Of a stretch of DNA of 50,134 bases, positions 2,951 to 46,502 are shown in pieces. A model generated the notes under the pieces. That model saw only the letters and a list, made by a program, of their open reading frames with translations, was not told where the DNA came from and searched no databases. A program made the translations under genes and the position numbers. This DNA is from an uncultured bacterium (GTDB taxonomy: Bacteria > Desulfobacterota > JADFVX01). Numbering within the stretch: position 1 is the stretch's first letter; each line of letters begins with the position of its first letter. Where the stretch lies: NCBI GenBank assembly GCA_965372635.1, contig CBDVDA010000002.1, positions 1-50,134 of the forward strand, read 5' to 3'.

Positions 2951-4822
2951 TTAATTGGCAGCCATCTCGCTGACCCGCCTTTCGAGAAGAGCCCTTTCCA
3001 TGGCGACACCAGCCTGCATGAGGAAGATGTCGAGAGCCGACACATCGCCGATTTCCTTGTCTTCCGGCAGGTTATCGCAATAGACGATGACAGCCACCCT
3101 GTTGTTGGCAATAATGGGTGCCGCAAAGCACTCGAAGGGGCGCTGCCCGCCGAGCCGCTCAACGAGGTAGTTGTTCCCTTCGTTATCTTCCATCTTCTTC
3201 GTCACGCTCCGCTGCGAATCGAGGACGTCTTTCAAAATGCAAGGGACGTCCTTTGAAATCTTCGTGGCCCTCACCCGTTTGTCGGCCAACTCCCCTTCGA
3301 TCTCTATGCCGAACTGGCCGAGTCCCTCCACACCGTCGTTCTTGACGAGAAAGATGACTGCCCTGTTCATTAGCTCACTTGCAAATCGCAAGATGAGCAG
3401 GGTGATCTGCCGCCCCCCTTCAGGACCGTTCAATTCCTCGATCATTGATTTCAACATCGATATGCCGGGGCTGGAGACGGGCTGCGGCGCTGAGCTTTCC
3501 TCGGGCAGAATGTCCCCAACCGCCGCCACTTCATCGTGAAGGTCTGCCGCCAGGTCCACGAGGCCACCGGAATCTGCCGGTGCCGCCATTGACACGGACG
3601 CCTCTACCGGAATTTCCACTGACGATTCCGCCTCTGCCGGTGCCGCTACTGACACATTCTCGGACGCTTCGCCCTCAAAAAGAGGGGTAAGGATGCCGAC
3701 AATATTCTCTACAAAGGCGCCGATGGCGTCTTCATCAAAATCACTGCCGAACTGGGCCTTTTTAGGCTTATCTATATAGTCCGCAGCACCCAGTTCCGTT
3801 GAACGGCTTTCGGCCTCACGGTTTACATGGTCGGTCATAAGGACAACGGGGACTTCCGGGAAGCCCCCCCTGAGAATTTCCAGCATCTCGATCCCCCCGA
3901 GCATCCCCGTTCCATCCATCCTCGGCATAATCAGGTCGGCAACGACGACAACCGTTGCGCCCGATGATTTGACTTCGCTTATGCAGTGAAGCGCCGCTTC
4001 CGATTTCACCTTCGGAACGACGTGGAAGTCATGACCGGCAAGTTTTTCAACCATCACCTTGAGAACGTTCGGATCGTCATCGACAAGCAAAAGGGCACGC
4101 TTCACCCCTTCGAGAGACACCGTTTCCGTTGCTGAAGGAGGCGGCTCTGCATTTTGCTCTTCAACGGTTTCTTCGTGGAGCGCCTTTATTTCCTCGCCCG
4201 TCGCCTCCTCATCTACCGGCTCGGAGGGGAGGTCCGCAAAGGGGTCCTGCTGTTGGGGTTCCGCTGGCGCCGGAGCGGTTTCCTCTACCTCCCCGACCGC
4301 CTCTTCTGTGGGCTGGTCGCGCCGCAGTTCATCCTGGAGCCGCGTCCCCTCCATGGCAAGGAACTGGGGGTTCAATCCGTGAGCGTAGACGAAAAAATCG
4401 GCCTTATCGAGATAGTCATCCACATTCTTCAGTTCGAAGTTGAAATTTCCAGACGCCCACCCGAAGAGGGAATAGGCGGATTTCTCGATCTGGCCCTTTT
4501 TAGCTTCATCGAAAGAATCGGGAGGAAGACCGAATTTTTCGCACAGTATGGCGTCGAGTCCTTCTGCCCCGCCCTTTTCCTTAAAAATGCCGAGTCCTTC
4601 CTGCAACTGTTCGGCAGATACGACGCCGCTTCCGGCAACGATATATTCGAGGTCCTCGCCCACGTCGGTAGAAAAAGAGCGGACAACCTGCCCGTCCCGG
4701 AAAATAATCTTTCCCTCTCTTTCACCATTCGTGATGAAGAGGATTCCCGACTTCCTGCTGAGACTGACAATCTGGAGAATGTCCCCCAACCCCAGGTCTT
4801 CCAAATTTCCGACTAAACTCAT
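2951..4822 (-). CDS. PATAN(DUF4388)-REC-GAF-like multidomain signalling protein
   Basis: 623 aa. The N-terminus GNLEDLGLGDILQIVSLSRKSGILFITNGEREGKIIFRDGQVV matches the PATAN/DUF4388 pattern. The central receiver is LLLVDDDPNVL...VVADLIMPRMDG...DKPKK. The C-terminal ~150 aa looks GAF-like by eye. Acidic, Pro/Ala-rich linkers separate the domains. Confidence 0.7.
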   Translation of the reverse strand: MSLVGNLEDLGLGDILQIVSLSRKSGILFITNGEREGKIIFRDGQVVRSFSTDVGEDLEYIVAGSGVVSAEQLQEGLGIFKEKGGAEGLDAILCEKFGLPPDSFDEAKKGQIEKSAYSLFGWASGNFNFELKNVDDYLDKADFFVYAHGLNPQFLAMEGTRLQDELRRDQPTEEAVGEVEETAPAPAEPQQQDPFADLPSEPVDEEATGEEIKALHEETVEEQNAEPPPSATETVSLEGVKRALLLVDDDPNVLKVMVEKLAGHDFHVVPKVKSEAALHCISEVKSSGATVVVVADLIMPRMDGTGMLGGIEMLEILRGGFPEVPVVLMTDHVNREAESRSTELGAADYIDKPKKAQFGSDFDEDAIGAFVENIVGILTPLFEGEASENVSVAAPAEAESSVEIPVEASVSMAAPADSGGLVDLAADLHDEVAAVGDILPEESSAPQPVSSPGISMLKSMIEELNGPEGGRQITLLILRFASELMNRAVIFLVKNDGVEGLGQFGIEIEGELADKRVRATKISKDVPCILKDVLDSQRSVTKKMEDNEGNNYLVERLGGQRPFECFAAPIIANNRVAVIVYCDNLPEDKEIGDVSALDIFLMQAGVAMERALLERRVSEMAAN

Positions 4823-4880: not shown

Positions 4881-5690
4881 TCAGCCAATAGCCTCGTTCA
4901 TGCTTCCCGTTCTATATCCTTCCATATCGAGGGAGACGTACTTAAATCCCTGTTCCTTAAAGCCGGAGACGACCACCTTCCTCACCTCCTCGGACAAGAG
5001 ACGATCAAAATCGTCTTCACCCACCTCAATCCTTGCCACATCATCATGATAGCGAACCCGAAACTGGCTGAAGGAAAAGCGCCGCAAAATGTTTTCACAG
5101 GAGTCTACCCGTTTCACCCTGTCGAGAGTGATGTCCGTCCCGTAGGGGAACCTCGATGAAAGACAGGCAAAAGCGGGCTTATTCCACGTGGGGAGTCCGA
5201 GGTCCCTGCTGAGTTGCCTGATCTCTTCCTTGTTCATTCCCGCCTCGACGAGGGGGCTCCTGACCCCCGTCTCCTCCGAGGCCTTCCTGCCGGGTCTGAA
5301 ATCATTCAGGTCGTCACAGTTCGTCCCGTCGGCTACGAAAGAGAGGCCCAACTCTTTCGCCTTACCGATCAGGAGGCCAAAAAGCTCGCTTTTACAGAAA
5401 TAGCACCGTTCCGTACTGTTTTCGGAAAACCCGGGGATCTCAAGTTCATTCGATTCCATGATAATATGCCTGCACCCGAAAGAGGCTGCAAGTTCCTTCG
5501 CCTCCAGGAATTCATGCTCCGGGTAGGTGGGCGACGTTGCCGTAACACCGACTGCGTTGTCGCCAAGAATATCGACGCAAACTTTTAAAAGAAAGGTAGA
5601 GTCCACCCCGCCCGAAAAGGCAACGGCAACGGAACCCATGCCGTGAACGATCTCTTCGAGATCTTTTAGTTTTTCTTTCGCTTCAGTCAT
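4881..5690 (-). CDS. larE: LarE-like PP-loop ATP-dependent sulfur transferase
   Basis: 269 aa. PP-loop AFSGGVDSTFLLKV, plus cysteines in ERCYFCKSE and PAFACLSSRFPYG as in the LarE/TIGR00268-type family. Confidence 0.7.
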   Translation of the reverse strand: MTEAKEKLKDLEEIVHGMGSVAVAFSGGVDSTFLLKVCVDILGDNAVGVTATSPTYPEHEFLEAKELAASFGCRHIIMESNELEIPGFSENSTERCYFCKSELFGLLIGKAKELGLSFVADGTNCDDLNDFRPGRKASEETGVRSPLVEAGMNKEEIRQLSRDLGLPTWNKPAFACLSSRFPYGTDITLDRVKRVDSCENILRRFSFSQFRVRYHDDVARIEVGEDDFDRLLSEEVRKVVVSGFKEQGFKYVSLDMEGYRTGSMNEAIG

Positions 5691-5696
5691 AGAGGT

Positions 5697-6704
5697 TCAC
5701 CGGACCCACATGGTTTCGATCTCCGTCTCCGACAGGGTAGTCCTTGCCATGAAAGAACCCTCTTCGTCGGTCGATGCGTAGATTACTTCCCGGTCGGCAG
5801 ATTCATCGGTTTTACTGAAGTTCAGGATAAGACTTCCCGCGCCCTCCAGGACTTCTTTTCCTGCTTTTCCCTCCACATAGGCGGTGGGCCCACTGAAGTT
5901 ATTCGGCGTAAGGAGCAGGCCTTTCTGCCCGAGAACGGCGATCCGCCTGTTTTCATCTTCATTCCGGCCGAGTACGACCTTCGTTCCATCTTTGAGTCGA
6001 AAGTGGCGTCCCATGGTGAGCATCTTGACTTCGGTCCAACTCTGTTTTTCCTTATAGTTAAAGTCATCCTTCAGGCGGGCGCTGAAATGCTTATCCGTCA
6101 GCAGGCATCCCCCCGAAGCACAGGGGTAATCCTCTATCCGGTAATCGTCGGCCACCTTTATCTGCTCTTTTCTCGAACGCCCCTCGATAGCGAGAAGCTT
6201 CTCCCTGTCCAGGATGCCCTCTTTCTCCGGGATCGTCGGGGGGAGGCGTTTGGCCGACAGGGGACGGACGATAAGCCCTTCCAGCCCGCTCTCTCTCTCG
6301 ATGAGGAACATGGGGTCCTTTCTCTGCGACATGGGGCGCTGCCCGAGCACTTCACCGGTCACGATGAAGGAAGCGCCCACTTCTTCCATATAGCGCTTTG
6401 CACTTTTAAAAGTGTAAATCCTGCAATCGACACAGGGGTTTATGGCGCTCCCGTAGCCATGGCGGGGGGCCCGGATTACGTCCATGTAGTCGAGCCCCTT
6501 ATGAATGACCTTCACCTCTATACCGAGTTGCTCAGCCGCATTTTTCGCATGCGATTTGCACCCCTCGGTTGCCTTGCCGTCACAGAGGCAAAAAGGGCTT
6601 TTGAAGTTGAGCGCCGTCACTTCTATCCCTTGTTCTATCATCAGCCTGACGGCGAGCGTGCTGTCCAACCCTCCCGACATCAGTGCAATTGCTTTTTTCT
6701 TCAT
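5697..6704 (-). CDS. PP-loop ATPase, ThiI/TtuA/MnmA-like putative tRNA thiolation enzyme; family not resolved
   Basis: 335 aa. N-terminal PP-loop LMSGGLDST. Conserved cysteines in NPCVDCR and ASGGCLLTD. Lies 6 nt upstream of larE on the same strand. Confidence 0.55.
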   Translation of the reverse strand: MKKKAIALMSGGLDSTLAVRLMIEQGIEVTALNFKSPFCLCDGKATEGCKSHAKNAAEQLGIEVKVIHKGLDYMDVIRAPRHGYGSAINPCVDCRIYTFKSAKRYMEEVGASFIVTGEVLGQRPMSQRKDPMFLIERESGLEGLIVRPLSAKRLPPTIPEKEGILDREKLLAIEGRSRKEQIKVADDYRIEDYPCASGGCLLTDKHFSARLKDDFNYKEKQSWTEVKMLTMGRHFRLKDGTKVVLGRNEDENRRIAVLGQKGLLLTPNNFSGPTAYVEGKAGKEVLEGAGSLILNFSKTDESADREVIYASTDEEGSFMARTTLSETEIETMWVR

Positions 6705-6839
6705 CGCTCCTTACGCCTGCAATCCATGGAAAGCAGACCCCGGTTTAATCATAAACGCATATAATATTTGATTTTTACAGTGGTGTCAAAAGATTTATGG
6801 CCGCCAAAGGCCCATAGGCGGCAAAAAAAGAAGTCGCGT

Positions 6840-6910
6840 AGGATGGGTGAAAACCCATCAAAATGCCTTTTGCTGATTACTGATGGGCTTCACGACCTTC
6901 CACCCATCCT
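6840..6910. repeat. Nested imperfect hairpin, REP-like intergenic element
   Basis: The outer arms aggatgggtg (6840-6849) and cacccatcct (6901-6910) are perfect complements. The inner arms aaacccatca (6851-6860) and tgatgggctt (6881-6890) match at 9 of 10 positions. Confidence 0.5.
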
Positions 6911-6949
6911 GCTCTAATTCTTGAACCTTCGTGACCTTTGTGGATTAAT

Positions 6950-7002
6950 CTTTGATGTTTCAGCCCGACCTCACGCCGAAACAGTACCTGTGTATGTTTA
7001 AT
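6950..7002. repeat. Copy A of a ~53-nt intergenic repeat; copy B is at 12188-12240
   Basis: Hand alignment of ctttgatgtttcagcccgacctcacgccgaaacagtacctgtgtatgtttaat against ctttgatgtttcggcgtgtcctcacgccggaaacaggacctgcgtattttttat gives about 45 of 54 matches. Confidence 0.6.
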
Positions 7003-7068
7003 ATTCCCCACTTAAGATTAAGAGGGAGCGCCGAAGGCGGGGGCCTTTGATCTTTAGGCAGTCCCTGC

Positions 7069-7162
7069 TTACTCAACAAGAGCCACAAGGTGGCCCGCCA
7101 CCCCGTCGAGAGGAAGGACGGCATCGGCAAACCCGGCGTCTATCACGGCACGAGGCATGCCG
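7069..7162 (-). pseudogene. cheB: Orphan 3'-terminal fragment of a cheB gene (last 30 codons plus stop)
   Basis: The minus-strand translation is GMPRAVIDAGFADAVLPLDGVAGHLVALVE*. The intact CheB C-terminus is GMPRAVIDAGLADAVLPLDGVAGHLVALVE*. In a hand alignment, 84 of 94 nt are identical to 13860-13953. No upstream cheB-like reading frame is present. Confidence 0.8.
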
Positions 7163-7306
7163 GAATTGATAATGGAATAATCCGGGGAATGTCCCTTAAT
7201 TTCCCATATTTATTCTTGTGGCACAAAGTCAATGGATGGTTGTATAGTGCATATGGTAACAATCAAGGCTATGAATCCGTTACGTGTTACTCGTTATAAC
7301 ATCAAC

Positions 7307-8569
7307 CTAGTCTATACCTTGTAGTCCCCCATAATATTTAATCTCTCTGTTCAATTCATGCAACACTAAAAGATTTTTTTTCTCATAAAGCTTCATCTTT
7401 TGCCTCTCTGCAGAAAAGTACTCTCTCAATGTCAAACCAGCATGCGAACCTGCCACGGCAAAGGTGCACAGATTTCTGATCGATGAGATTGATTTTTCAT
7501 TTGAACCATACAGAATATTCAAGATGATCGAGCCAAATTTCGGAGTATAATGAAAGCTGTCCAAATAGTATTGCATTACTATGCCTGTTTTAATGTCATG
7601 GCGAGGTAAACTTTCAGTTGTAAGTTCATTAACAGTGGCAAAATCCCATACAGGAAATGTTTCTTTTGAAAATTTAATAGCTTCTTCTTTAACTATTGCA
7701 GCCAGTGTTTCCTTCCAGTTCTCATATGTGCTCCATAAATCATACGCCTTAATTGTTTCCAACAATATGATGTGTTGCGGTGAAATGAACAGCTTCAAAT
7801 TTATGTTATTTTCATAGGAAAATGATATTAGTTCACGATAAACATCAAATATTGATTCGTCCTTATCCACAAAACCAAAAACCCTTTCTTGCCCTCCTGC
7901 AAGCTGATTTATGTAAGTACGTGTCGCTGAATAGTACATAACACTCCTTTGTCCATCCAAACGTTCTATGCCTTCTTCCATAGAAAACAGATATCTTTTA
8001 CCTGTTTGAATGTCATATTCCAGTCTTTCAACGTTTCTTTGTCTCAGGATTGTTGAAAAGCTGTCGTTAATGGCATCGACAGAAAATAGAGTTTCCAGTT
8101 TTTCTTTAATTATGTTTTGCTTATTGTAGCCAAAACCTTTCTCCATGAAATCACGGTTAGCTCTATAAATGTTAAAACTAAAGAAGTCCAGGCCAATAAC
8201 TACTTCTTTTAATGGTGCGACCGAATGAACATATTTTAAAAGAGCCAACGTTTCACGCAGGCTGTTGCCTCCTATCGCATAATTATAGCGAGGCGCTGTT
8301 TCTTTTGGCCAAGCCGGGTCATTCATGTCAATGCCGTAATCTGCCGGAGATGCACCCAATACTATGGTCTTTGGTTTTATCTTATAGACCTGATGCGCTT
8401 TTACCATATGAATTCGGCGATAGGCTTCCGTTTTTATTCCATTAAGGCCCTTCACTGTAACTAGTCCATAGATACTGTAAGGATCTACAATGGCAATGAA
8501 AGCGGCAGGGACAAGCATTGCTGCCAAAGTTAAAACGAAAGACTTTATGAGCCAGCGTTTATATTCCAT
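7307..8569 (-). CDS. Membrane-anchored hypothetical protein, possible SGNH/DltD-like partner of the MBOAT acyltransferase
   Basis: 420 aa with one N-terminal TM helix (FVLTLAAMLVPAAFIAIV). A block-I-like VLGASPADYG and a block-V-like DSFH motif are visible. It lies 14 nt downstream of the MBOAT gene. The function is inferred from position and motifs only. Confidence 0.45.
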   Translation of the reverse strand: MEYKRWLIKSFVLTLAAMLVPAAFIAIVDPYSIYGLVTVKGLNGIKTEAYRRIHMVKAHQVYKIKPKTIVLGASPADYGIDMNDPAWPKETAPRYNYAIGGNSLRETLALLKYVHSVAPLKEVVIGLDFFSFNIYRANRDFMEKGFGYNKQNIIKEKLETLFSVDAINDSFSTILRQRNVERLEYDIQTGKRYLFSMEEGIERLDGQRSVMYYSATRTYINQLAGGQERVFGFVDKDESIFDVYRELISFSYENNINLKLFISPQHIILLETIKAYDLWSTYENWKETLAAIVKEEAIKFSKETFPVWDFATVNELTTESLPRHDIKTGIVMQYYLDSFHYTPKFGSIILNILYGSNEKSISSIRNLCTFAVAGSHAGLTLREYFSAERQKMKLYEKKNLLVLHELNREIKYYGGLQGID

Positions 8570-8583
8570 TTAAATTAACAGCC

Positions 8584-10062
8584 TCAAAAATTAAAATAGA
8601 TAAACTCGCTCAAGCGGGTCATAAGATATGTGCTCGTTGTTATCAATGCTGCAACAAATAGAGCGGATTTCAGATTCGGTCTGAACGATTCCCTTATTTC
8701 CATCGAGTTTTTTGCAAAAAGTGTAAGCATGAGAACAACCAACAGGGCAAAGAAGGTTTCATTGCCTCCCTTAACAGAAGCAAATACGTTTTCCGAAAAT
8801 GACACTTTCAGGTCAAGCGCATTGAAATATTCCTTTGTCCAAAGAGGCAATTGCATGCCGTTCAAGCCAAGCATTCCCTTGTAAACCTTAACTGCATCAG
8901 CAATCGTATTTGCCCGAAACATAACCCATGCAAAATGAATAAAGAGAAAGGTCAGCGCCCACCTGAGCGATTGGGGGAGTCCAATATTCAGTTTGCTGAA
9001 CCACCGGTGAATAATGCTTCCTACCCCATGCATTACACCCCATAATACAAAGGTCCATCCGGCGCCGTGCCACAAACCGCCGAGGAAGAAAGTAATAAAA
9101 ATATTCGCATACATCGATATATTTCTTTTTCGATTGCCTCCAAGTGGTATGTAAACATAATCCCGCAGCCAACGGCTTAATGTCATGTGCCATCTGCGCC
9201 AGAAATCTCTTATATTGAGTGCCTTGTAAGGTGAATTGAAATTCAAAGGCAACTTGATATTGAAACAGTAGGCTGTGCCTATCGCCATGTCCGTATAGCC
9301 GCTGAAATCAAAATATATCTGGAATGTGTAACTGAGCGAAGCTGCCCAGGCGTCTATAAAATGGAGCGTTGTTGTATGGTCGAAGCCGGCAGTGGCCCAC
9401 TTCGCAAAGGTATCCGCAATAACTACTTTTTTAAATAAGCCGATGGACAGAAGGAGAATGCCCGATGCCATGTTCTGCCAATTGATGAGCTGGTTTCTTA
9501 ATGAGTGAAATTGCGGCATCATTTCCTTGTGGTGCACAATGGGTCCTGCAATCAACTGCGGAAAAAAGGAAACAAAGAGGCAGTATTTTAGAAAGTCATA
9601 TTCTTTTGAAATTGTTTTGTAACTATCTACCAGGTAGGCAATTTGCTGAAAAGTAAAAAAGCTGATGGCAAGAGGAAGGGCCAGAGATAACAAGCTAAAC
9701 TCTGAACCGGAAAGCATATTTACGTTATGAATAAAGAAATCGGCATATTTGTAAAAGCCAAGGAATCCGAGATTAAAGAGGATTCCTGCTGCCAGCAATT
9801 TTTTGGGTGACATTATGACATTCTGATTTTTACCGGACCCTGAAACCATCTTCGTGAGGGTTGTACCGATCCCATAATTTACAAGGATTGACGAAAGCAA
9901 AAGGGGGAGATATATAGGATTCCAGTAGGCATAAAAAAAGAAGGACGATAAAACCAGCCATACCCTGCCCGCCAGGGCAAGGCGAAATTTGGTCAGGTTA
10001 AAATAAACAATTATGACTATAGGAAGAAAACAGTAGAGATAAACATATGAGTTGAAAAGCAA
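8584..10062 (-). CDS. MBOAT-family membrane O-acyltransferase (AlgI/DltB-like)
   Basis: 492 aa and polytopic. It has the signature FWRRWHMTLSRWLRDYVYIPLGGNR and the conserved His region GGLWHGAGWTFVLWGVMHG. Confidence 0.85.
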   Translation of the reverse strand: MLFNSYVYLYCFLPIVIIVYFNLTKFRLALAGRVWLVLSSFFFYAYWNPIYLPLLLSSILVNYGIGTTLTKMVSGSGKNQNVIMSPKKLLAAGILFNLGFLGFYKYADFFIHNVNMLSGSEFSLLSLALPLAISFFTFQQIAYLVDSYKTISKEYDFLKYCLFVSFFPQLIAGPIVHHKEMMPQFHSLRNQLINWQNMASGILLLSIGLFKKVVIADTFAKWATAGFDHTTTLHFIDAWAASLSYTFQIYFDFSGYTDMAIGTAYCFNIKLPLNFNSPYKALNIRDFWRRWHMTLSRWLRDYVYIPLGGNRKRNISMYANIFITFFLGGLWHGAGWTFVLWGVMHGVGSIIHRWFSKLNIGLPQSLRWALTFLFIHFAWVMFRANTIADAVKVYKGMLGLNGMQLPLWTKEYFNALDLKVSFSENVFASVKGGNETFFALLVVLMLTLFAKNSMEIRESFRPNLKSALFVAALITTSTYLMTRLSEFIYFNF

Positions 10063-10395
10063 TCAATTACCCCTAAACGTTGATAGCAGCAGTCACCCCA
10101 TATATATGGTAATGGCCAATGAAAGATTTAAAAAAACTATATGGTTTATGGCTAACTGCAAAACGGGTATTATATGACTATTTAGTTGATAAGCAATAAA
10201 AAAACTATGGTGTTGTGCTGAAGTCGTTGAATACTTTTAATGTGCCTATTTTTTCAATAATGTCTCTTTGATTCGATGAGACCCCTAATCTTCAATATCC
10301 ATGACAACACTATCTTTTAATAAATCTCATCGTTGCAGTTCTAACACCTTTAAAGCTTGTTTACTATTTATTTTAAAAATAATGCGTTTCAAGAT

Positions 10396-10425
10396 AGGTG
10401 GAGGCTTAATTTTAAGCCTCCACCT
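10396..10425 (-). terminator. Strong GC hairpin immediately downstream of the secreted-protein gene
   Basis: aggtggaggcttaa / ttaagcctccacct forms a 13-14 bp perfect palindromic stem 23 nt after the stop at 10448. There is no clean U-run, so the assignment as an intrinsic terminator is tentative. Confidence 0.45.
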
Positions 10426-10447
10426 CAATAAAATAATTGATAAAAAA

Positions 10448-11383
10448 TTATGGACAGGTGACGGATGCCGTACTCAAGGTACCGGAATTGTCTACAGTGA
10501 GCCGGTAGCAGTTTGAACCGTCCGTTGCTCTGAGTATTACACCCTTGCCTTGCGTCGTCACCGAGGCGTCACCCCCCTCAACTTCCAGAGCGCTGCCGGG
10601 ATTCGTGGTGCCGATACCAACCCTACCCCTGTTTGTTACCGTCATGGCGTCACCATAGTAAGTATCCCTTATTTCAAGAAGAGGGAAGAGGACATTATTA
10701 TATATTCCTCCATCATCATTCACACCCTCGATAATTACCGATGCTTTCTTCGCCGTCTGGGTGCCATAATCATCCTGAATATATAAGGCCGGTTGATTGT
10801 TCCAGTCGTTGGTAGACGGGTGGACACTTGTTATCTTCACGTCCGCTTTGTCCTCATCTGCGCCAAGGCTACCAGTTCTCTTAACTTCCAAACGCGAATC
10901 GGTAGTTGAAGTCCCGATGCCCATTGTACCGGTGAGGGCATCATAATAGATATCATCTGCAATCGTCAGTGATCCTGAATTTTCTAAAATAAGCGAATCA
11001 CCAAAATAATCGTCTGTTAGATAAAGGTGAGGGAAAATATCTGGACTAAAACTAGAATGCACACTTTTTATCATAAAGGTTGGGTGCTTCTCCTGGTTGC
11101 CGTAATCATCCTCTATATACAGCGCAGTCTGGTTGTTCCAATCGTCATCAGCAGATCTTTTGCTTGTTATCTTCACGTCTGCAGCGTCCGCACCACCGCC
11201 AAAGCCTTGATCTCTCTTAATCTCCACCCCGTAACCATCATGCCCGCTGGAATAATTCGAGTATGAACCTGCGGTTATGTCCGCACCATCGGCATGTACG
11301 GTGGAATGACTCAACAAAAGACAGACTACTAAAAGAACCGATAAAAAAAATGATTTGCATTTCCATTTGTACGCAGTTTTCAT
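10448..11383 (-). CDS. Secreted protein with two ~95-aa internal repeats
   Basis: 311 aa. Signal peptide KSFFLSVLLVVCLLLSHSTVHA. Repeat 1 is ADVKITSKRSADDDWNNQTALYIEDDYGNQ...MGIGTSTTDSRLEVK. Repeat 2 is ADVKITSVHPSTNDWNNQPALYIQDDYGTQ...VGIGTTNPGSALEVE. The C-terminal Cys pair is NCYRLTVDNSGTLSTASVTCP. Confidence 0.6.
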   Translation of the reverse strand: MKTAYKWKCKSFFLSVLLVVCLLLSHSTVHADGADITAGSYSNYSSGHDGYGVEIKRDQGFGGGADAADVKITSKRSADDDWNNQTALYIEDDYGNQEKHPTFMIKSVHSSFSPDIFPHLYLTDDYFGDSLILENSGSLTIADDIYYDALTGTMGIGTSTTDSRLEVKRTGSLGADEDKADVKITSVHPSTNDWNNQPALYIQDDYGTQTAKKASVIIEGVNDDGGIYNNVLFPLLEIRDTYYGDAMTVTNRGRVGIGTTNPGSALEVEGGDASVTTQGKGVILRATDGSNCYRLTVDNSGTLSTASVTCP

Positions 11384-12187
11384 AATATTTAAACACCTCC
11401 ATTAATTTTTTAATCAATTAAAATGGTTTGACCTGCTTGAAAGCCAAAACAGATTACCAAAGTAGTCTTCTCCCTCCCTTCCCAAGCAAAATACAAAAAT
11501 AATTACACCTTCATGCTTAATGTAAGTTTCCATTAAATCAGGTCTCTATATTATGTACTCCTATAAGGCGACAACTTTGCGGCAAAACCTTAGCACAAAC
11601 GTTACATTTACAGGGCGAATGTACACACTAAACACTAAGCCCTAACTACATGTCAAGGACAAACCACACAAATACCCACTAATCCACCAATATACAAATT
11701 CCTACCCAATAGTTACGACACTATTCCCCTAAAAATACCCCTAAATTAGCCAAATACACCCTTGAGACACCCCAAAATACCCCAGAGTAGCACAATAATA
11801 TCACCACAAAACAGCCTGAAACAGTCAAATTAACACAAAAACCAGCATGCTGCCAATATCAGTCAACACTTAACACTTAATAAAGCCGTCTGACTATTAA
11901 AAGCGCATCAAGGTATGAAATTGCGGCAGAATACGTTTTAAATGTTGGGCAAAATCTTGTCGGGTAGGGCCAAAGCAAATAGCTGACATGTAAGAACAAT
12001 GTCCTAAAAAAAGCCATCTTACTACCCTTAGAGGCTTTTTTAGGGTGAAATGGCGGTTTAAGAAACATCTAAAGCCCTGGATTCCACATCGGGCTTGGTT
12101 TATCCAGGTCAATAGCCGGGGGAATGGCAAGCAGGGAAATGCAGGTTAACTTGTTTACTCGTTTTTATGTTCGAGATGGAAAAGGGG

Positions 12188-12240
12188 CTTTGATGTTTCG
12201 GCGTGTCCTCACGCCGGAAACAGGACCTGCGTATTTTTTA
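12188..12240. repeat. Copy B of the ~53-nt intergenic repeat; copy A is at 6950-7002
   Basis: See copy A. This copy contains the hairpin gtttcggcgtg-tcct-cacgccggaaac (12195-12221). Confidence 0.6.
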
Positions 12241-12299
12241 TTTCGGTGTGAGGACACACCGAAATATCTGAGGAGGTTAAAAAAATAAGAATAGCCTCT

Positions 12300-13848
12300 C
12301 GGGGTGTTGAAAAACCCCTCTTTTAGAATCTAAAATTGGCTGACCAAATTAGTTTTTGCTATTCCCTTTAATGGGAGAAACCTTTTATCCATAACCATCT
12401 TATCCATCATGTGCTGTATAGTGGTAAATATTGGACGTATTAATAATAAAAGTTGGGACTTAAAGGTAGCCAGTCTCTTTAAATTGATTACTGCCGCTGT
12501 CAGGTAAACCTGAATGGCAACATTAGACAAACCTCTCCGCACTGCCCGCCGCAATCCATGCTGTGTTTTGGCCTCGCCATGTATACCTTCAACCATCCAT
12601 CGGTGCCGACTGTAACACTCCCTTGTTTCCCTGTCCCAATTCCGCTTTCTTCGTCTTGCCCTCAACAATGCCTCATATCCGTCTACTATCAAAACGGTAC
12701 GTACCTTCGCGCTGGGTGGAATACAACGAGCCTTTAATAAACAACTACCGCAGTCCCTAGCCTTGGCTCGGTATACCCAACCCTTTGGAACCTTGCTTGC
12801 ACGTTTCATATGCTTACTAGCCGGACACGTCACTCTCTGGTGCCTGCCATCATATTTGAAACGTCTTAGAGGGAGCCTCTCGGCTTTGCTCCTTTCCCTT
12901 TGAGGAGGAATAACGGCGTCCGTCCCTCGCTCTTCCAATTCCTTGTAATTCCCGTGGTGTGCATAAGATGCATCGGCGCTTAAACATTTAACTTTCTTAC
13001 CGGTAATCGTCTCTATTCTATTAACCCCGTCCATTAACAAAGTACCTTCATTAACTTCACCTGTTGTCAGGTCAATATCTACAATTATCCCGGCCTCGTC
13101 GTCTACCGTTGTATGCTGTTTATAGGTCGGCTCCAGCCGGTTCTTCTTGTTTGACGTGGCCATTGTAGCATCGGGATCGGTGGTGCTTCGCTTCTTCGGA
13201 TAACGACGCTGAGCCCTTGGCCTGCCGCGCTTGACCGGGTTCTCTTCATCTTCGATACTGTTCTCTTCCAGAACTTTATCGGCGTACTCCGTTGTCAGGC
13301 TTTCCCATGAAACGTCGGCACGAATAAGAGTAGCGTCAGTATGAATCGTATCGCCATCAACCAACCCTGCATCAATACATGACTTTATCGTATTTTCGAA
13401 GATTGCCTTAAACCGATCAGCCCCCCAGCGCTGACGTATCTTTGTTAAGCTGCTATGGTCAGGCAGCTTCTCCTCCAGACGATACTCTGCAAACCAGCGA
13501 ATGGCCAGGTTGACCTGTGCCTCCCGCATAAGCTTTCGGTCATGGACTATATTGTGAAAAAACCCGGCCAACATAAGCCTGACAGCCGCCTCTGGATCAA
13601 TGCCTGGACGCCCGTTGTTTTCGCAATAACAATCTTTTACCTCATCATGCAGCCAAGCAAGATCAAGTATTTTGTCCACCTTCTTTAATATATGATCCTT
13701 AGGGATCAGATCATCTAAAGAGCCATGAATAAAAAGTGTGCCCTGCCAGCGGTCCTGTTTGCCTATCATTCAGGTATCTGCCTCCTTGCAATTAGATACC
13801 TGCAATTATATACTTTCTCTCGCTATTTGGGGGTTTTTCAACACCCCG
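12300..13848 (-). mobile_element. Intact insertion sequence, IS5/IS1182-type, 1549 bp
   Basis: Perfect 19-bp terminal inverted repeats, cggggtgttgaaaaacccc (12300-12318) and ggggtttttcaacaccccg (13830-13848), bracket a single transposase ORF. No clear target-site duplication is visible. Confidence 0.8.
12330..13769 (-). CDS. DDE transposase (IS5/IS1182 group, InsH/DUF772-like N-terminus)
   Basis: 479 aa. N-terminal GRPGIDPEAAVRLMLAGFF...HSSLTKIRQRW. Candidate DDE residues lie in IHTDATLIRAD, LSADASYAHH and MVEGIHGEAK. Confidence 0.85.
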   Translation of the reverse strand: MIGKQDRWQGTLFIHGSLDDLIPKDHILKKVDKILDLAWLHDEVKDCYCENNGRPGIDPEAAVRLMLAGFFHNIVHDRKLMREAQVNLAIRWFAEYRLEEKLPDHSSLTKIRQRWGADRFKAIFENTIKSCIDAGLVDGDTIHTDATLIRADVSWESLTTEYADKVLEENSIEDEENPVKRGRPRAQRRYPKKRSTTDPDATMATSNKKNRLEPTYKQHTTVDDEAGIIVDIDLTTGEVNEGTLLMDGVNRIETITGKKVKCLSADASYAHHGNYKELEERGTDAVIPPQRERSKAERLPLRRFKYDGRHQRVTCPASKHMKRASKVPKGWVYRAKARDCGSCLLKARCIPPSAKVRTVLIVDGYEALLRARRRKRNWDRETRECYSRHRWMVEGIHGEAKTQHGLRRAVRRGLSNVAIQVYLTAAVINLKRLATFKSQLLLLIRPIFTTIQHMMDKMVMDKRFLPLKGIAKTNLVSQF

Positions 13849-13859
13849 GCTGAGCCTGA

Positions 13860-14906
13860 TTACTCAACAAGAGCCACAAGATGGCCCGCTACCCCGTCGA
13901 GAGGAAGAACGGCATCGGCAAGTCCGGCGTCAATTACAGCGCGGGGCATGCCGAAGAGGGTAGACGTCTCCTTGTCCTGGGCAAAGACCATCCCCCCTTT
14001 TCCCTTAATCAATCCCGCCCCTTTCGTCCCGTCATCACCCATACCGGTAAGAATAACGGCGACGGCGTCGCTTCCATAGTTCTCGGCAATGGACGCCATG
14101 GAAATATCGGCCGATGGCTTGAGTGTCACCTCTTCGGGCCCTTTATCGAGCCTGATTTTCATTTCTTTCCCGTACTTAAAGACCTTCGTCTGCCAACCGC
14201 CGGGAGCGATATAGACATTCCCCGGCGTCAGTGTATCGCCGTCGGCGGCCTCCTTCACAGAGAGTTTACTCATGGCGTCGAGACTTTGAGAGAGCGATTT
14301 CGTAAAAAGGGGAGGCATATGCTGGACGATGAGGACCGGCATGGGATAACCGGCCGGCAAGAAAGGAACGACCCTGTTTAGCGCCTGAACGCCCCCCGTG
14401 GACGACGCGATGAAAAGAATCGACTTTTCGGGAGACTTGACCGTTTCTACCTCCCGACGGGGAACGGCCAGCGGCCGCGCCTCTGTCCCCTTGTTACGGA
14501 GTCTTTTACCCGCAGAGGCAGCCGTAACGATTTTCCCGATCAAGTCCCCCTGCACCTTTCCGAGATCGAGGGATATGGCGCCCGAGGGTTTCTCGATAAA
14601 ATCGATGGCGCCCGCTTCGAGCGCCCGAAGAGTAAGATCAGCCCCTTTCTTCGTGTAGGCGCTGAACATGACAACCGGTGTGGGGGCACTCTCCATGATG
14701 CGGTTCAGCGTGTCGAGTCCGTTCATCCCCGGAAGTTCCCAGTCGAGGGTAATCACATCGGGAGCGACGGTGGGAATGCTTTTCAACGCCTCTTCCCCGC
14801 TTCCGAGGAGAGAGACGACCTCGATCCTGTGGTCGGAAGAGATGAGGGTGGAAATCGCCTTCCTCATAAAGTTCGAATCGTCCACCACCATCACTCTGAT
14901 TGCCAT
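13860..14906 (-). CDS. cheB: Protein-glutamate methylesterase/deamidase CheB (REC plus methylesterase)
   Basis: 348 aa. REC region VMVVDDSNFMRK...VITLDWELPGMNG. Esterase motifs IASSTGG, LIVQHMP and LTGMGDDG. Confidence 0.92.
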   Translation of the reverse strand: MAIRVMVVDDSNFMRKAISTLISSDHRIEVVSLLGSGEEALKSIPTVAPDVITLDWELPGMNGLDTLNRIMESAPTPVVMFSAYTKKGADLTLRALEAGAIDFIEKPSGAISLDLGKVQGDLIGKIVTAASAGKRLRNKGTEARPLAVPRREVETVKSPEKSILFIASSTGGVQALNRVVPFLPAGYPMPVLIVQHMPPLFTKSLSQSLDAMSKLSVKEAADGDTLTPGNVYIAPGGWQTKVFKYGKEMKIRLDKGPEEVTLKPSADISMASIAENYGSDAVAVILTGMGDDGTKGAGLIKGKGGMVFAQDKETSTLFGMPRAVIDAGLADAVLPLDGVAGHLVALVE

Positions 14907-40998: not shown

Positions 40999-41446
40999 TA
41001 ATTTAAAACCTCTTTTTCATTATAAGTTAAGTTTATCAAGAACTGATTCCAAGTCAAGAGATATCTGGGATTAGACTGTTGACAGTCAAATATGTGAAGA
41101 GTTAGAGCTGCTACAGAGCAAGTGTCACAAGAGTTACAGCCCAAGATGTTGGGCGCAATGCCCTCCAGTTATTGCACCCTACCTGGCTAACACTTTCTTC
41201 TTCTGGTGCAATATACGATTATTAGCTGAAAGTGTGATTTTCTTAACCATTCCAAAATGTGAAGATTACACTCCGTAATCGTCAAAAAACCCTTGCAATC
41301 AACAAAGCATATCGTATTATCATAGGGTGACTATCCTCCCGTAAGTGCGGTTTATTAGTAAGCCTTAACGGTTTGTATGTTCTCTGGCGACAATCTATGA
41401 TATATTTTTTTGACATCATCTTCTACAAAGTTGATTGAGGTGACAC

Positions 41447-42820
41447 TTGACTGCAAGAAATGAAAAAAGCTACTCCATGCCAATGCGTAATCTTGTTGTT
41501 ATGGTGGTTTCAATATTTGTCATTGAACTCATTCTAATGTTTTTTCTGAGCTTAGGTGGCTTCCCTCCAATTATTGAAGCTCTGCTTGATGCTGTCCTTC
41601 TTATCGTGTTGGCATCACCCTTTCTTTACTTTTTATTGTATCATCCTTTAATAATTCATATAAATGAACGCAAGAAGGCTGAAGAATACTTAGAATCAGC
41701 TCATGCTTTTTTACAAGACTTGATTAACACCATACCGAATCCAATTTTCTATAAAGATGCATCGGGCCACTATCTTGGATGTAATGAAGCCTTTGAGAAG
41801 TATCTTGGCAAGACAAAAAGTGAAATAGTTGGAAACACTGTGTATGATGTGGCCCCTATAGACTTGGCAGATAAAAACGGGCAGATCGATGATGACTTGT
41901 TTCAAGAGGAAGGGATTCAGGTATACGAAAGTCAATTTTTGCATTCTGATGGAAGCAGACGCAACGTTATCATCAATAAAGCCACTCTTAATAATGCCGA
42001 TGGATCTTTAGGAGGACTCGTTGGCGTAATAATTGACATTACAGATCGCAAACGTATAGAGGTTGATCTTAAAAAATCAAAAAAGGATGCCGATACTGCA
42101 AACAAGGCTAAATCGGATTTTCTTTCTAATATGTCTCACGAGCTGAGAACACCCCTGAATGTCAGTACCGGTTTTTCTGAAATGTTAAAAGATGGCATAG
42201 TCGGGGATATGCCTGAACAACAAAGAGAATTTATCCAGGATATTTACGACAGCTCTTACCATCTCCTTGCCTTAATAAATGACATACTTGATCTTAGCAA
42301 GATAGAATCCGGTAATATGGAAATGAAAATCACAGAAGTGAATTTAAAAAAACTAATAGAAAAAAGTCATTTATTTATAAAAAATAAGCTTTTATCAGGA
42401 GACCTTGAACTGACAATGGAAATAGGTGAAAATGTTGGGGTCATATCTGCCGATAAAAGATTGCTCAAGCAGGTACTGATTAATCTACTTTCAAATGCCG
42501 CTAAATTTACGCCAAAGGGCGGCCAGATTACAGTTGGGGCAGAAAACATAAAAGACAACTCAGGAAATGATAATAGGATTGAAATATTTGTTGAGGACAC
42601 TGGAATAGGAATTAAAAAAGAAGATTTAGTTAAAGTTTTTGAGCCCTTTAAACAGATTGAGTCAGTGTTAACGAAAAAATATCAAGGGACTGGGCTCGGG
42701 CTATCCATCTGCAAAGATATTATTGAAATGCATGGGGGCAGGTTATGGGTTGAAAGCGAATGGGAAAAGGGAAGTAAGTTCATCATTAATCTGCCTGCAC
42801 CCAAAAATCTAAATCTATGA
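41447..42820 (+). CDS. Membrane PAS-domain sensor histidine kinase
   Basis: 457 aa. Two N-terminal TM helices and a PAS region (LINTIPNPIFYKDASGHYLGCNEAFEKYLG). H-box FLSNMSHELRTPL. ATPase motifs NAAKFT, DTGIGI and GTGLGL. A TTG start with GAGGTG upstream is plausible. The alternative in-frame ATG is at 41477. Confidence 0.82.
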   Translation: MTARNEKSYSMPMRNLVVMVVSIFVIELILMFFLSLGGFPPIIEALLDAVLLIVLASPFLYFLLYHPLIIHINERKKAEEYLESAHAFLQDLINTIPNPIFYKDASGHYLGCNEAFEKYLGKTKSEIVGNTVYDVAPIDLADKNGQIDDDLFQEEGIQVYESQFLHSDGSRRNVIINKATLNNADGSLGGLVGVIIDITDRKRIEVDLKKSKKDADTANKAKSDFLSNMSHELRTPLNVSTGFSEMLKDGIVGDMPEQQREFIQDIYDSSYHLLALINDILDLSKIESGNMEMKITEVNLKKLIEKSHLFIKNKLLSGDLELTMEIGENVGVISADKRLLKQVLINLLSNAAKFTPKGGQITVGAENIKDNSGNDNRIEIFVEDTGIGIKKEDLVKVFEPFKQIESVLTKKYQGTGLGLSICKDIIEMHGGRLWVESEWEKGSKFIINLPAPKNLNL

Positions 42821-43222
42821 AAAAACATACAATACTGCTAGTTAATAATGATAAGAATTGATCAGATTACACCATAGATATGGCGCCTGATGTGTTGAGT
42901 GAGTGTCATTTAATATTCAGTTTCAACTCTTTTTCCCGTGATCGTTATTTTTTGCTCATGAAAATTCTGTGCATTAGTAAGTGTGCTAGCTAGGTTGGAG
43001 TGAATTCACAAACCCCAACAAAATAAATTCCTTTCATCATATCCACAAAACTCTTTTTCCGATACTCCACGTTGGCCCCTCAATACCATGAATATGAATG
43101 TTTAAATGTTTGCCAACTCTTTTATCTTTGATTGAAGGGAATTGAATAAATTATTTTAGGATACAGCCTGTAATGTGTAATGATATACTAAGGCACATTA
43201 TGATAGGAGGTAATATTGGCTG

Positions 43223-44560
43223 ATGATTGGTCCCACAATAAAAACAATAATAATTTTAGTTGTCATCTTTATTGGTGCTGCCCTCTATCTCCATAAAGAC
43301 GTCAGCAAAAAATCCGGCTATATCTCATCAGAAGCGTGCAAAGACTGCCACAAACGCCACTATGACGGTTGGAGCAATACTCTCCATCCCAAGATGTTCA
43401 GACCGGTGAAAAGTTCTGACGACATTTTAGGCGATTTCAACTCAAAAGATCCAGCACTGACCTTCGAAAAAAAGGATGTAGAATACGTTGTCGGCAACAA
43501 ATGGGAGCAGGTCTACGTGAGGATGATAGACGGCGAATATTACCCCCTTACCGCCAAGTGGTATATTCAGTTAAACAAATGGGTGCCATTTAAGGTTAAG
43601 GACTGGAAAGAAACCCCCATGTCTCCAAAATGCAACGGTTGCCACACAACAGGGTTCGACCCGGAAACATTTGAGTTCAGTGAATTCGGAATCGGCTGTG
43701 AAGCGTGTCACGGTCCCGGAAACATTCACGTGCAAAACAGGCAAAAAACCGAATACCCTCTGTGCGCCCTATGTCACAGTTCCGACAAGCCCGAAGAAAC
43801 GGACATCATTAACTCTGTAAACAGCGCCGTCTGCGGACAGTGCCATTCGAGAGGGCAAAGCGTAAGAGAGGGTGAAGAAGGAAAGCCCGCCTTCAGCTTC
43901 CCCGTTAACGTAACGCCGGGAGAGGACATAAAAAAATATTTCAACCTCATGAAACCGGATAAGGGGAAGGAGAATAAATTCTGGTGGGGCAACGGCATAT
44001 CGAAAAACAGGCACCAGGAGTTCGCTGACTGGCAAAATTCAAAACATTCCGAATCACTAAGACTGATGAAGGAGAAAGATAATAAGGTACGGGGCAAAAT
44101 GAATGTCCGCTGTCTGAGATGCCACTCTACAGACTATCGCCTTTCCAAAAAAGACAATGTGCCTGATATTGAAACTGCCAGGTTTGGAGTAACCTGCGTA
44201 GCCTGCCATGACCCGCATGGTCTCGACAGGGGCACAAGCTTTAAAAAGGACGGCACCTATGTCTGCGCCGGATGCCATATAGACAGCATCTCTTTTCATT
44301 CCGGCCGCAAAGGGAAGCCCCACTATCCATGTCCGCCGAGCCAGGTTGCCTGCGCGGACTGCCATATGCCCTATATCGTAAAAACAGGAGGTTATTTCAG
44401 TATCAGGAGCCATGCATTCCAGATAATAAAACCTGCCGATGCGGAAGCGCTTGGGATGCCAAGTTCCTGCCAGAACGGAACTTGCCATAAAGACAGGACT
44501 ATAGACTGGGCAAAAATGGAGTTCGACAAATTTTATCCTTCCACGGATAAACCGCTTTAA
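43223..44560 (+). CDS. Membrane-anchored multihaem c-type cytochrome (9 CXXCH plus 1 CX4CH)
   Basis: 445 aa with an N-terminal signal-anchor helix. The canonical haem sites are CKDCH, CNGCH, CEACH, CALCH, CGQCH, CLRCH, CVACH, CAGCH and CADCH. A variant site, CQNGTCH, lies near the C-terminus. Confidence 0.85.
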   Translation: MIGPTIKTIIILVVIFIGAALYLHKDVSKKSGYISSEACKDCHKRHYDGWSNTLHPKMFRPVKSSDDILGDFNSKDPALTFEKKDVEYVVGNKWEQVYVRMIDGEYYPLTAKWYIQLNKWVPFKVKDWKETPMSPKCNGCHTTGFDPETFEFSEFGIGCEACHGPGNIHVQNRQKTEYPLCALCHSSDKPEETDIINSVNSAVCGQCHSRGQSVREGEEGKPAFSFPVNVTPGEDIKKYFNLMKPDKGKENKFWWGNGISKNRHQEFADWQNSKHSESLRLMKEKDNKVRGKMNVRCLRCHSTDYRLSKKDNVPDIETARFGVTCVACHDPHGLDRGTSFKKDGTYVCAGCHIDSISFHSGRKGKPHYPCPPSQVACADCHMPYIVKTGGYFSIRSHAFQIIKPADAEALGMPSSCQNGTCHKDRTIDWAKMEFDKFYPSTDKPL

Positions 44561-44576
44561 AAAGAAGGTCCTGGAT

Positions 44577-46382: not shown

Positions 46383-46502
46383 ACTTAATTTACAGCCGTT
46401 GTGAATTCTATTCTTGCATACACCCTTAATTCTTAAATCTTCTTCCATTAGAAACGCTTGCGAGGAGGTCTCTGGAATTAGTAAGTGCGTTACTGATGCT
46501 CT

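Follow-up and report, generated by a model that had tools for sequence, protein, structure and literature searches.

An AT-rich island bracketed by two diverged copies of the cheB 3' end in an uncultured Desulfobacterota bacterium

How did a second 3' end of cheB, and a block of AT-rich DNA, come to lie between cheB and the gene that follows it in an uncultured bacterium of the Desulfobacterota? The question is raised by a window of 50,134 nt (the whole stretch of contig CBDVDA010000002.1 that was analysed), in which two collinear direct repeats, copy A (6950-7162) and copy B (12188-13953), bracket a 5.0-kb AT-rich block. Copy B is split by a 1,549-bp insertion sequence of the IS1182 family, and the features of the locus are listed in Table 1. 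The island is a clear instance of horizontal gene transfer, though not an unusual one, with a layout known from elements such as prophage e14 in E. coli.

Table 1. Features of the cheB locus and of the island behind it (window coordinates)
Feature	Position	Strand	Basis and remarks
ThiI-like / NFACT-R_2 gene	5697-6704	-	Pfam; directly after cheB in relatives
Repeat copy A, downstream part	6950-7002		Sequence comparison; holds a degenerate single hairpin unit
Copy A spacer	7003-7068		GC 0.56
Stranded cheB 3' fragment (copy A)	7069-7162	-	30 codons plus stop
AT-rich island proper	7163-12187		5,025 nt, 40.1% GC
420-aa protein, N-terminal helix	7307-8569	-	No Pfam, PHROG or NCBIfam match
MBOAT-family membrane O-acyltransferase (AlgI/DltB/PatA type)	8584-10062	-	PF03062, E = 9.5e-36
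311-aa secreted protein	10448-11383	-	Internal repeat, 336-nt spacing
Non-coding G-poor stretch, 0.8 kb	11384-12187		Upstream of the 311-aa gene
Repeat copy B downstream part (12188-12240) plus B spacer	12188-12299		B spacer GC 0.43
IS1182-family insertion sequence	12300-13848	-	Transposase at 12330-13769
Repeat copy B, cheB side	13849-13953	-	11 nt past the stop codon plus last 94 nt of intact cheB
Intact cheB, 348 aa	13860-14906	-	Pfam: response-regulator receiver plus methylesterase domains

The two direct repeats align in register, with homology that is sharply bounded at both ends. The original prediction had described two collinear copies with spacers of about 66 and 70 nt, the second one cut by the insertion sequence, and the same coordinates are recovered here, with 66 nt in copy A (7003-7068) and 70 nt in copy B (12241-12299 plus 13849-13859). 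On the cheB side, 106 nt are matched between 7057-7162 and 13848-13953 with 87% identity, and the downstream parts, 6950-7002 and 12188-12240, are identical at 44 of 52 bases in an alignment with a single 1-nt indel. The segment 12188-12240 is the single best match of the window to the non-coding tail of copy A, and its local score of 62, against 26.0 +/- 1.7 with a maximum of 30 in the shuffle control, places the similarity that the prediction needed above background. The two spacers are non-alignable except for about 11 nt beside the stop codon, and the repeat, this non-homologous spacer included, extends 123 nt beyond the cheB stop codon. Within the cheB segment the copies share identical stretches of 21, 17, 13 and 9 nt, and the longest stretch in the downstream part measures 12 nt; none of them can be picked out as the core of the crossover.

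The 94-nt cheB parts of the two copies (7069-7162 and 13860-13953) differ at 10 positions, nine of them at codon position 3 and one at position 1, and the 30 encoded residues differ only once, with Phe in copy A and Leu in copy B; the totals of 10 sites and one residue are those of the original prediction. Nine of the ten changes are synonymous, with dS of 0.49, dN/dS of 0.03 and a Fisher P of 2.4e-5. Since nine changes are synonymous and the remaining one exchanges Phe and Leu, the copies diverged as working alleles and not by decay of a local duplication. The dN/dS calculation, which had been proposed as a check of this claim, supports the view that purifying selection acted on both ends, as portions of functional genes, while they diverged. 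Copy A itself has an in-frame TAA 17 codons upstream and lacks a start codon, so that no gene is expressed from the fragment. Duplication can in principle produce direct repeats, and the copies might stem from a local tandem duplication that later decayed, or from an ancestral locus which relatives have lost; such an origin is opposed by the concentration of nine of ten changes at third codon positions (binomial P = 3.6e-4) along with the low dN/dS, and also by the foreign composition of the intervening DNA and by its distribution among relatives, both described below.

The DNA between the repeats is compositionally foreign. Its GC content stands against 53.3% and 53.1% in the two flanks, and the tetranucleotide distance to the flanks peaks at 0.53 in the island and is 0.11-0.15 elsewhere. 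The windowed GC (0.40 vs 0.53) and k-mer calculations agree with the AT-rich island that had been estimated by eye, and only the earlier value for the flanks, about 55% or more, was slightly high.

The cargo is made up of three genes. The MBOAT protein matches TIGR04091 under its cut-off, and its closest homologues are just 61% identical. Mobile DNA is known to carry MBOAT genes, with examples on temperate phages of Pseudomonas (JBD44 among them) and on plasmids of Bacillus, and BLAST of the island against plasmids and phages matched only the conserved MBOAT core, with 65-72% identity. The 420-aa protein is a likely partner of the MBOAT protein, as judged from gene position. Only 8 homologues of it were found, the best 68% and the next 32% identical; the contig of the 68% homologue is 2.5 kb long and shows no cheB context, and PF07611 is found in one distant relative. 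Its structure model has a pLDDT of 61, and the fold search gave no PDB match at E <= 0.001. The arrangement of an MBOAT gene followed by the gene of a putative membrane-anchored partner resembles the AlgI-AlgJ/X, DltB-DltD and PatA-PatB modules; the island partner differs from these in that no SGNH, DltD or AlgX signature is detectable by Pfam, NCBIfam or fold search. The acyltransferase cargo which had been predicted is thus present as the MBOAT gene, and the second acyltransferase gene is not confirmed. The 311-aa protein has weak tail-fibre-like similarity, with PHROG matches at E of about 3e-4, and no relative in viral contigs. The non-coding stretch upstream of it (11384-12187) holds no recombinase gene remnant.

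Related genomes had been suggested as the place to look for an empty site, and it is found there. In six related CheB lineages, which correspond to seven loci (L081, L083/L084, L086, L087, L088 and L089), cheB is followed directly by the ThiI-like, LarE and PatA_N genes, with a gap of 145-266 nt between cheB and the ThiI-like gene, and the island is absent from all seven loci. The CheB proteins of these lineages are 60-85% identical to the window CheB and none is from the same species, the closest being the one at 85%. The DNA alignment with L081 ends at window position 13873 and restarts at 6833, the best local match of copy A to the cheB end of L081 is 81% over 95 nt, and the promoter of the ThiI-like gene found by the promoter scan, TTGACA-17-TATTAT at 6761-6789, is conserved in relatives. 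Since cheB directly precedes the ThiI-like, LarE and PatA_N genes in the relatives, the block is an insertion, and its absence from all six syntenic lineages, added to the two points given above, makes a local duplication or a lost ancestral locus scarcely conceivable. A same-species empty site was not found; a CheB scan of one-per-species genomes gave best matches of 49-51% identity and no close genome, and exact-protein look-ups of the window CheB and transposase returned no identical record.

Could the arrangement be an artefact, in which the sequences of two strains from the same sample, one with an A-type and one with a B-type cheB end, were fused in one contig? The window comes from one contig of metagenome style, of which no exact copy is recorded, and alleles about 11% apart could coexist in one sample. 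However, unrelated sequences meet at 7162|7163 and at 12187|12188, with no shared repeat through which an assembler could pass, and a switch between strains would be expected inside the repeat and not at its edges. Such an assembly chimera is very improbable.

In agreement with the original prediction, domain and profile searches detected no integrase, neither in any island ORF of at least 25 aa nor in the scanned large ORFs of the window, and no excisionase or transfer genes were found in the island or in the scanned 50-kb window. The window holds one pair of IS ends, both of which belong to the element at 12300-13848, and a composite transposon was rejected, as there is no second IS copy. 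There is no tRNA or tmRNA gene in the window, and a tRNA-gene-targeting genomic island was rejected as none lies at the border. An integron attC reading was considered and also rejected.

Recurrence was searched for beyond the window. None of 86 other cheB loci has a second cheB 3' end downstream, so that the idea of an element that targets cheB is not established. Island genes beside cheB homologues elsewhere had also been expected, and no related island was found; protein, metagenome, viral, plasmid and phage searches gave no donor, related island or circular form. Metagenome DNA scans with the cheB-end pattern and with the hairpin pattern gave 0 hits each, the viral-contig scan with the cheB-end pattern gave nothing, and no report of cheB as an island attachment locus was found in the literature.

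The reading preferred here, to which a probability of about 0.45 is given, is a horizontally acquired island that arose by Campbell-type insertion of DNA with a congeneric cheB 3' end, through an agent of integrase type. A single crossover near codon -31 of cheB would have placed a circular DNA between cheB and the ThiI-like gene; at one end, this DNA would have had the final 94 nt of cheB from a congener, followed by about 120 nt of the sequence downstream of it. The agent would most likely have been a site-specific integrase from the kind of integrative element that e14 and phage 21 represent at icd. The element's own cheB end, copy B (13860-13953), would now complete the gene, and the native end, copy A (7069-7162), would be stranded 6.8 kb off as a dead fragment. 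The recombination genes may have been lost later or may never have been on the piece, which would leave a CIME-like island that is movable only with help in trans. The insertion, its foreign composition, the divergence of the repeats as selected alleles, the intact cheB and the lack of an integrase are observed; the circular intermediate, the integrase catalysis and the polarity, with B incoming and A native, are inferred.

Prophage e14 and phage 21 at icd of E. coli are the closest known likeness. They insert in the 3' end of a protein gene, which remains whole, and leave at the far end a directly oriented 3' fragment, of 163 bp in their case and 94 nt here. The icd and icdC ends of e14 differ mostly synonymously, with one or two conservative substitutions in addition (PMC6379469; PMC13626634), as the two cheB ends do. 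The cheB locus has the intact target gene, the stranded direct fragment, the synonymous divergence and the unoccupied site of the icd type, and lacks an integrase near a putative att site. While e14 encodes both the integrase and the excisionase that it needs and leaves the chromosome when the SOS response is induced, no recombinase is present here; in addition, the cargo here is of 3 genes in 5 kb, and the repeat continues for 123 nt beyond the stop codon and includes a spacer that is not homologous. Neither this extension nor such a spacer is required for a pure replacement end, an observation that counts against the preferred reading.

Cis-mobilizable elements (CIMEs) are decayed remnants of ICEs or IMEs that were described in streptococci. 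The island has their structure, with att-like repeats, whose att role is putative, and no integration or transfer genes. It differs from them in that a cognate integrase-bearing element at the cheB site is found neither in the window nor in the 86 cheB loci nor among DNA and protein relatives, that there is no tandem accretion, and that the host lineage is unrelated and uncultivated.

The alternative named in the original prediction, in which homologous recombination captured foreign DNA with a cheB homologue, stays as a possible, if rather unlikely, rival. Here no cheB-specific element would be needed, and the DNA would have come in by RecA integration of a circle or by homology-facilitated illegitimate recombination. 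In the first route, a circle from a congener, which could be an aberrant excision product or a plasmid co-integrate, would integrate via the homeologous stretch of about 213 nt. In the second, a linear cheB'-hairpin'-island molecule would be anchored by homology inside cheB, and an illegitimate join would attach its far end to native position -94. The missing integrase fits such a capture, as does the non-coding downstream DNA in the repeat, which is expected for a captured chromosomal segment, and the fact that cheB-directed insertion does not recur in the 86 other loci. The A and B cheB ends are 89% identical and the nearest sampled relative is at 77-80%, which makes a congeneric donor with long cheB homology plausible. 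The identity between A and B is, however, too short and broken, with runs of no more than 21 nt within 94 + 53 nt of 84-89% identity, which argues against efficient RecA exchange; by the principle of minimal processing segments, short and diverged homology gives very inefficient exchange. Illegitimate joins of the homology-facilitated type usually delete recipient DNA and would not be expected to duplicate 213 nt of it, and a separate earlier event would be needed to put the island behind the donor cheB. A comparable case is lambda dgal, in which aberrant excision of the specialised-transducing type is followed by homologous (Campbell) integration. This would explain a mobile piece of a host gene with adjacent non-coding DNA and the homeologous flanking repeats; the island differs in having no phage genes, with just the weak tail-fibre-like signal of the 311-aa protein.

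The downstream part of the repeat carries a hairpin motif. Copy B has twin inverted hairpin units, at 12192-12219 and 12241-12268 (unit TTTCGGYGTG-N4-CACRCCGAAA), and its DNA fold is strongly structured (z = -7.2), whereas that of the downstream part of copy A is not significant (z = -1.8). The motif, CTTTGATSTTTMRGC, recurs a third time, in partial form, in the spacer of copy A (7045-7059). The loops are unlike between copies A and B (TGAGGTCG vs TGAGGACA), so there is no identical overlap at the hairpins. The motif occurs neither in the rest of the 50-kb window nor in 87 fetched loci. REP/REPIN-type palindromes come as inverted pairs in many copies across a genome, together with a RAYT transposase; here the copies within 50 kb are limited to the island locus. 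Terminator and promoter scans at the repeat gave nothing above shuffle expectation, and the A and B spacers gave no alignment to the intergenic DNA of relatives above shuffles after multiple testing. No Rfam family was found over the window at gathering score, and a permissive threshold gave just meaningless miRNA-hairpin matches far under gathering scores. That the cheB 3' end and the twin hairpins form the dedicated site of an unsampled family of integrase-less islands, which would be moved by a trans-acting recombinase and carry their own selected cheB ends, is improbable.

Which copy came in? The layout of an insertion at a gene 3' end with one copy completing the gene, as originally predicted, holds, and for the further claim that the incoming DNA supplied the present cheB end the tests only lean that way. 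The synonymous codons of copy A are closer to host usage (lnLR 3.27; codon preference P = 0.11, which is not significant), the spacer GC is 0.56 in A vs 0.43 in B, and L081 agrees with A at three of the A/B variable sites and with B at one; codon fit, spacer GC and L081 sites are weak hints that A may be native. L082 contradicts L081, as it agrees with B at four sites and with A at three. The reverse polarity would have cheB and copy B as native and copy A brought by the island as a relic of imprecise excision from an earlier congeneric host, with a crossover in the hairpin motif near GAAACATCAAAG (12188-12199 / 6950-6961). Exactly at the distal boundary of the repeat the copies share 12 identical nt, the well-formed twin palindromes of copy B could be a recombination or target site, the repeat reaches well beyond the gene end, and the L082 sites side with B. 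Codon preference and spacer GC nevertheless lean the opposite way, the differing loops leave no identical overlap, and the motif is absent from the rest of the window and from the fetched loci, so that this polarity is doubtful.

The insertion sequence that splits copy B is identified by its transposase (NF033551, 354 bits vs a cut-off of 270). It has perfect 19-nt terminal inverted repeats, lies 11 nt past the cheB stop codon and is without target-site duplication. IS1272, a member of the IS1182 family, replaces stem-loops without target duplication, and the present element resembles it in lying just 3' of a gene with no target-site duplication (PMC5678879). The two cases differ in that no uninterrupted copy B is at hand here to display the replaced stem-loop. 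On the preferred reading the IS landed after the island, probably in place of a stem-loop.

Insertion in the 3' end of a gene is a long-established principle, known from icd, fda, guaA and tRNA genes, and the conceptual gain from the cheB case is therefore small. The locus is a natural example of a gene 3' end that was exchanged for a homeologous one during the gain of an island with its function kept, and cheB as it now stands probably combines parts from two lineages. Divergence that is synonymous only, between a gene end and its stranded fragment, tells repeats borne by an insertion from local duplications. The MBOAT module is marked as recently acquired accessory DNA within a conserved chemotaxis/two-component cluster.

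A segment of about 213 nt, made up of the end of the chemotaxis gene cheB and DNA behind it, is directly duplicated, with both boundaries sharp and foreign DNA between the two copies: copy B at the intact cheB and copy A on the far side of an AT-rich island. Every gene in the cheB-to-CheA part of the window is on the minus strand, and the table follows that reading order.

Features of the cheB-to-CheA region in minus-strand reading order
Feature	Position	Strand	Remarks
Intact cheB	13860-14906	-	348 aa
Non-coding DNA			11 nt between cheB end and insertion sequence
IS1182-family insertion sequence	12300-13848		perfect 19-nt inverted repeats; transposase 12330-13769
Copy B spacer beyond insertion sequence			59 nt
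Copy B, 53-nt segment	12188-12240		
AT-rich DNA	7163-12187		5,025 nt; genes for 311-aa secreted repeat protein, MBOAT O-acyltransferase and 420-aa protein
Copy A, extra cheB 3' end	7069-7162		94 nt
Copy A spacer			66 nt
Copy A, second copy of 53-nt segment	6950-7002		
Intergenic DNA with strong promoter			245 nt, between copy A and ThiI-like gene
ThiI-like gene	5697-6704	-	
LarE	4881-5690	-	
PatA_N response regulator	2951-4822	-	
CheA		-	past PatA_N response regulator gene in reading direction

The original prediction of an AT-rich island, which had been judged by eye, agrees with windowed GC (40.1% against 53% in both flanks) and with a deviant k-mer signature, the tetranucleotide distance to the flanks being 0.53 against 0.11-0.15 in ordinary windows. 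Its coordinates and counts were all reproduced, and no recombinase was found in island ORFs of 25 aa or more or in the large ORFs scanned across the window, as it had stated for integrases; tRNA genes and Rfam families were not found in the window either. Upstream of the 311-aa gene, about 0.8 kb (11384-12187) is non-coding and strongly G-poor on the plus strand, with no Rfam match and no ORF with a family match. Another AT-rich block, at 41001-46480 (GC 0.36-0.41, tetranucleotide distance 0.50), carries plus-strand genes for a PAS histidine kinase, a multihaem cytochrome c and a CHASE4-HAMP histidine kinase, between a fumarate-reductase/succinate-dehydrogenase flavoprotein gene and a transglutaminase-like gene on the minus strand. 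It has no flanking direct repeats and is probably another acquired island.

CheB relatives were searched among 5.8 billion sequences, and the contigs of the nearest (85%, 77%, then at most 64% identical) were fetched. The proposed empty site is present in L081, the locus of the 85% relative, and in five lineages with 60-64% identity (L083/L084, L086, L087, L088 and L089), where cheB is followed by 145-266 nt and then by the ThiI-like, LarE and PatA_N genes, so the block is a gain in the lineage of the window. The DNA alignment of L081 to the window stops at 13873 and restarts at 6833. The promoter TTGACA-17-TATTAT before the ThiI-like gene is intact at 6761-6789 and is conserved in L081, L083, L086 and L087, the four relatives whose intergenic DNA was read; the insertion spares both cheB and this promoter. 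A long inverted repeat at 6828-6922 (25-nt arms, 80% complementary, with a T-run after it on the minus strand) occupies the same place as a short terminator hairpin directly 3' of cheB in L081. In L082, the locus of the 77% relative, other genes follow cheB, so the cheB 3' border is a synteny break there too. These genes (L082:1223-2605) are a Cys-rich 149-aa gene on the opposite strand and a 2-hydroxyacid dehydrogenase gene; the ThiI-like gene is not among them.

Between the 94-nt cheB parts there are 10 differences: nine fall on third codon positions and one on a first position (F versus L). The Nei-Gojobori method counts 9 synonymous differences on 25 sites and 1 non-synonymous on 65 sites (dS 0.49, dN 0.016, dN/dS 0.03, Fisher P = 2.4e-5), and chance would place 9 or more of 10 changes at third positions with a probability of 3.6e-4. 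Since nearly all differences are synonymous, each end evolved inside a working gene of its own lineage and the two were united later, as had been predicted; this bias rules out a local duplication with subsequent decay. The time copy A has spent as a dead fragment has been too short for random changes to build up. Across the window, only 12188-12244 matches its non-coding tail significantly (score 62 against 26 +/- 1.7 for shuffles), and in the 53-nt parts 44 of the 52 bases that align are identical. Identity across the 94 nt is 89% between A and B and 77-80% between either of them and L081, so the second allele came from a relative that is closer than those sampled; GC is similar in the 94-nt ends (0.61-0.64). 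The cargo that follows it is far richer in AT, and probably already travelled with a piece of congeneric chromosome consisting of the cheB end and about 120 nt of the DNA beyond it.

Copy A has the codons preferred by host genes at the nine synonymous sites (lnLR 3.27) and copy B has codons that match island usage, which leans towards A being native, at P = 0.11 only in a sign-permutation test. The A spacer is GC-rich (0.56) and the B spacer AT-rich (0.43), and neither aligns with the intergenic DNA of relatives. Outgroup sites conflict: L081 agrees with A at 3 and B at 1, L082 with A at 3 and B at 4. The tail of copy B has a pair of oppositely oriented, well-formed palindromes (12192-12219 and 12241-12268; DNA fold z = -7.2) with a common asymmetric loop (TGAGGACA), and copy A has one degenerate unit (6954-6980, z = -1.8). 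These look like REP or REPIN elements or a recombinase binding site; neither the window nor the 87 fetched loci have further copies. A third, partial copy of the motif CTTTGATSTTTMRGC lies at 7045-7059 (within 7041-7068), directly behind the stop codon of the stranded cheB 3' end, and is similar to the junction at 12184-12202 where copy B meets the island. The reverse polarity, in which the island entered behind cheB at the hairpin motif, with copy A carried along as a relic of imprecise excision, seems improbable.

The insertion sequence lies 11 nt past the cheB stop codon, lacks a target-site duplication and has a GC of 0.47, between the island and host values. IS1272, of the same family, inserts into stem-loops downstream of genes and replaces them without duplication (PMC5678879), a mode that fits this element. 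Such a replacement would explain why the spacers differ in content despite similar length. The element is regarded as having arrived later and independently of the island.

If a circle with the ~213-nt segment joined the chromosome through one crossover, foreign DNA flanked by such a direct duplication would result. Integrases of elements that insert into a gene 3' end and bring a replacement end are best known for this, and one of them may have been the agent here, the recombination genes being lost afterwards; this reading is tentatively preferred, with a probability of about 0.45. The elements e14 and phage 21 give the same picture in E. coli icd, where the changes in a stranded 163-bp icdC fragment are synonymous apart from two conservative substitutions (PMC6379469; PMC13626634). 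The island also fits the published definition of a CIME, a decayed remnant that keeps such flanking repeats and lacks integration genes (PMC5704250). The insertion is real and the original interpretation was largely right; the architecture is an already known one, of the e14, phage 21 and CIME sort.

The case against an integrase comes from the lack of any recombinase, from the 123 nt by which the repeat runs beyond the stop codon, unalignable spacer included, and from the other cheB loci, where a second cheB end lies downstream in 0 of 86. Nor was a related island, donor, or phage or plasmid copy found in the protein, metagenome, viral, plasmid and phage collections searched. There is no sign of a wider cheB-targeting family. 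Capture driven by homology is somewhat less likely than an integrase: for RecA the identity between A and B is short and broken (longest identical runs 21, 17, 13 and 12 nt), and when DNA is joined illegitimately during transformation, recipient sequence is usually deleted, whereas here it is duplicated.

Among the cargo, the secreted 311-aa protein has an internal duplication (10757-11226) with a spacing of 336 nt and 73-77% nucleotide identity, and its C-terminal part is weakly similar to phage tail-fibre families. The 420-aa protein is rare, with eight homologues (best 68%, next 32% identical), of which the only close one comes from the same ENA sample as L082 and occurs there as tandem paralogues (L085). 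One distant relative carries PF07611, and a PDB search with the AlphaFold model (pLDDT 61) gave no significant match; on these grounds, an acyltransferase label for this gene is unjustified. By its position, it is likely the partner of the MBOAT protein, which is a standard AlgI/DltB/PatA-type membrane O-acyltransferase, with closest homologues only 61% identical, in Desulfuromonadaceae-like and many other bacteria. MBOAT genes are found on temperate phages and plasmids, so such modules are common mobile cargo.
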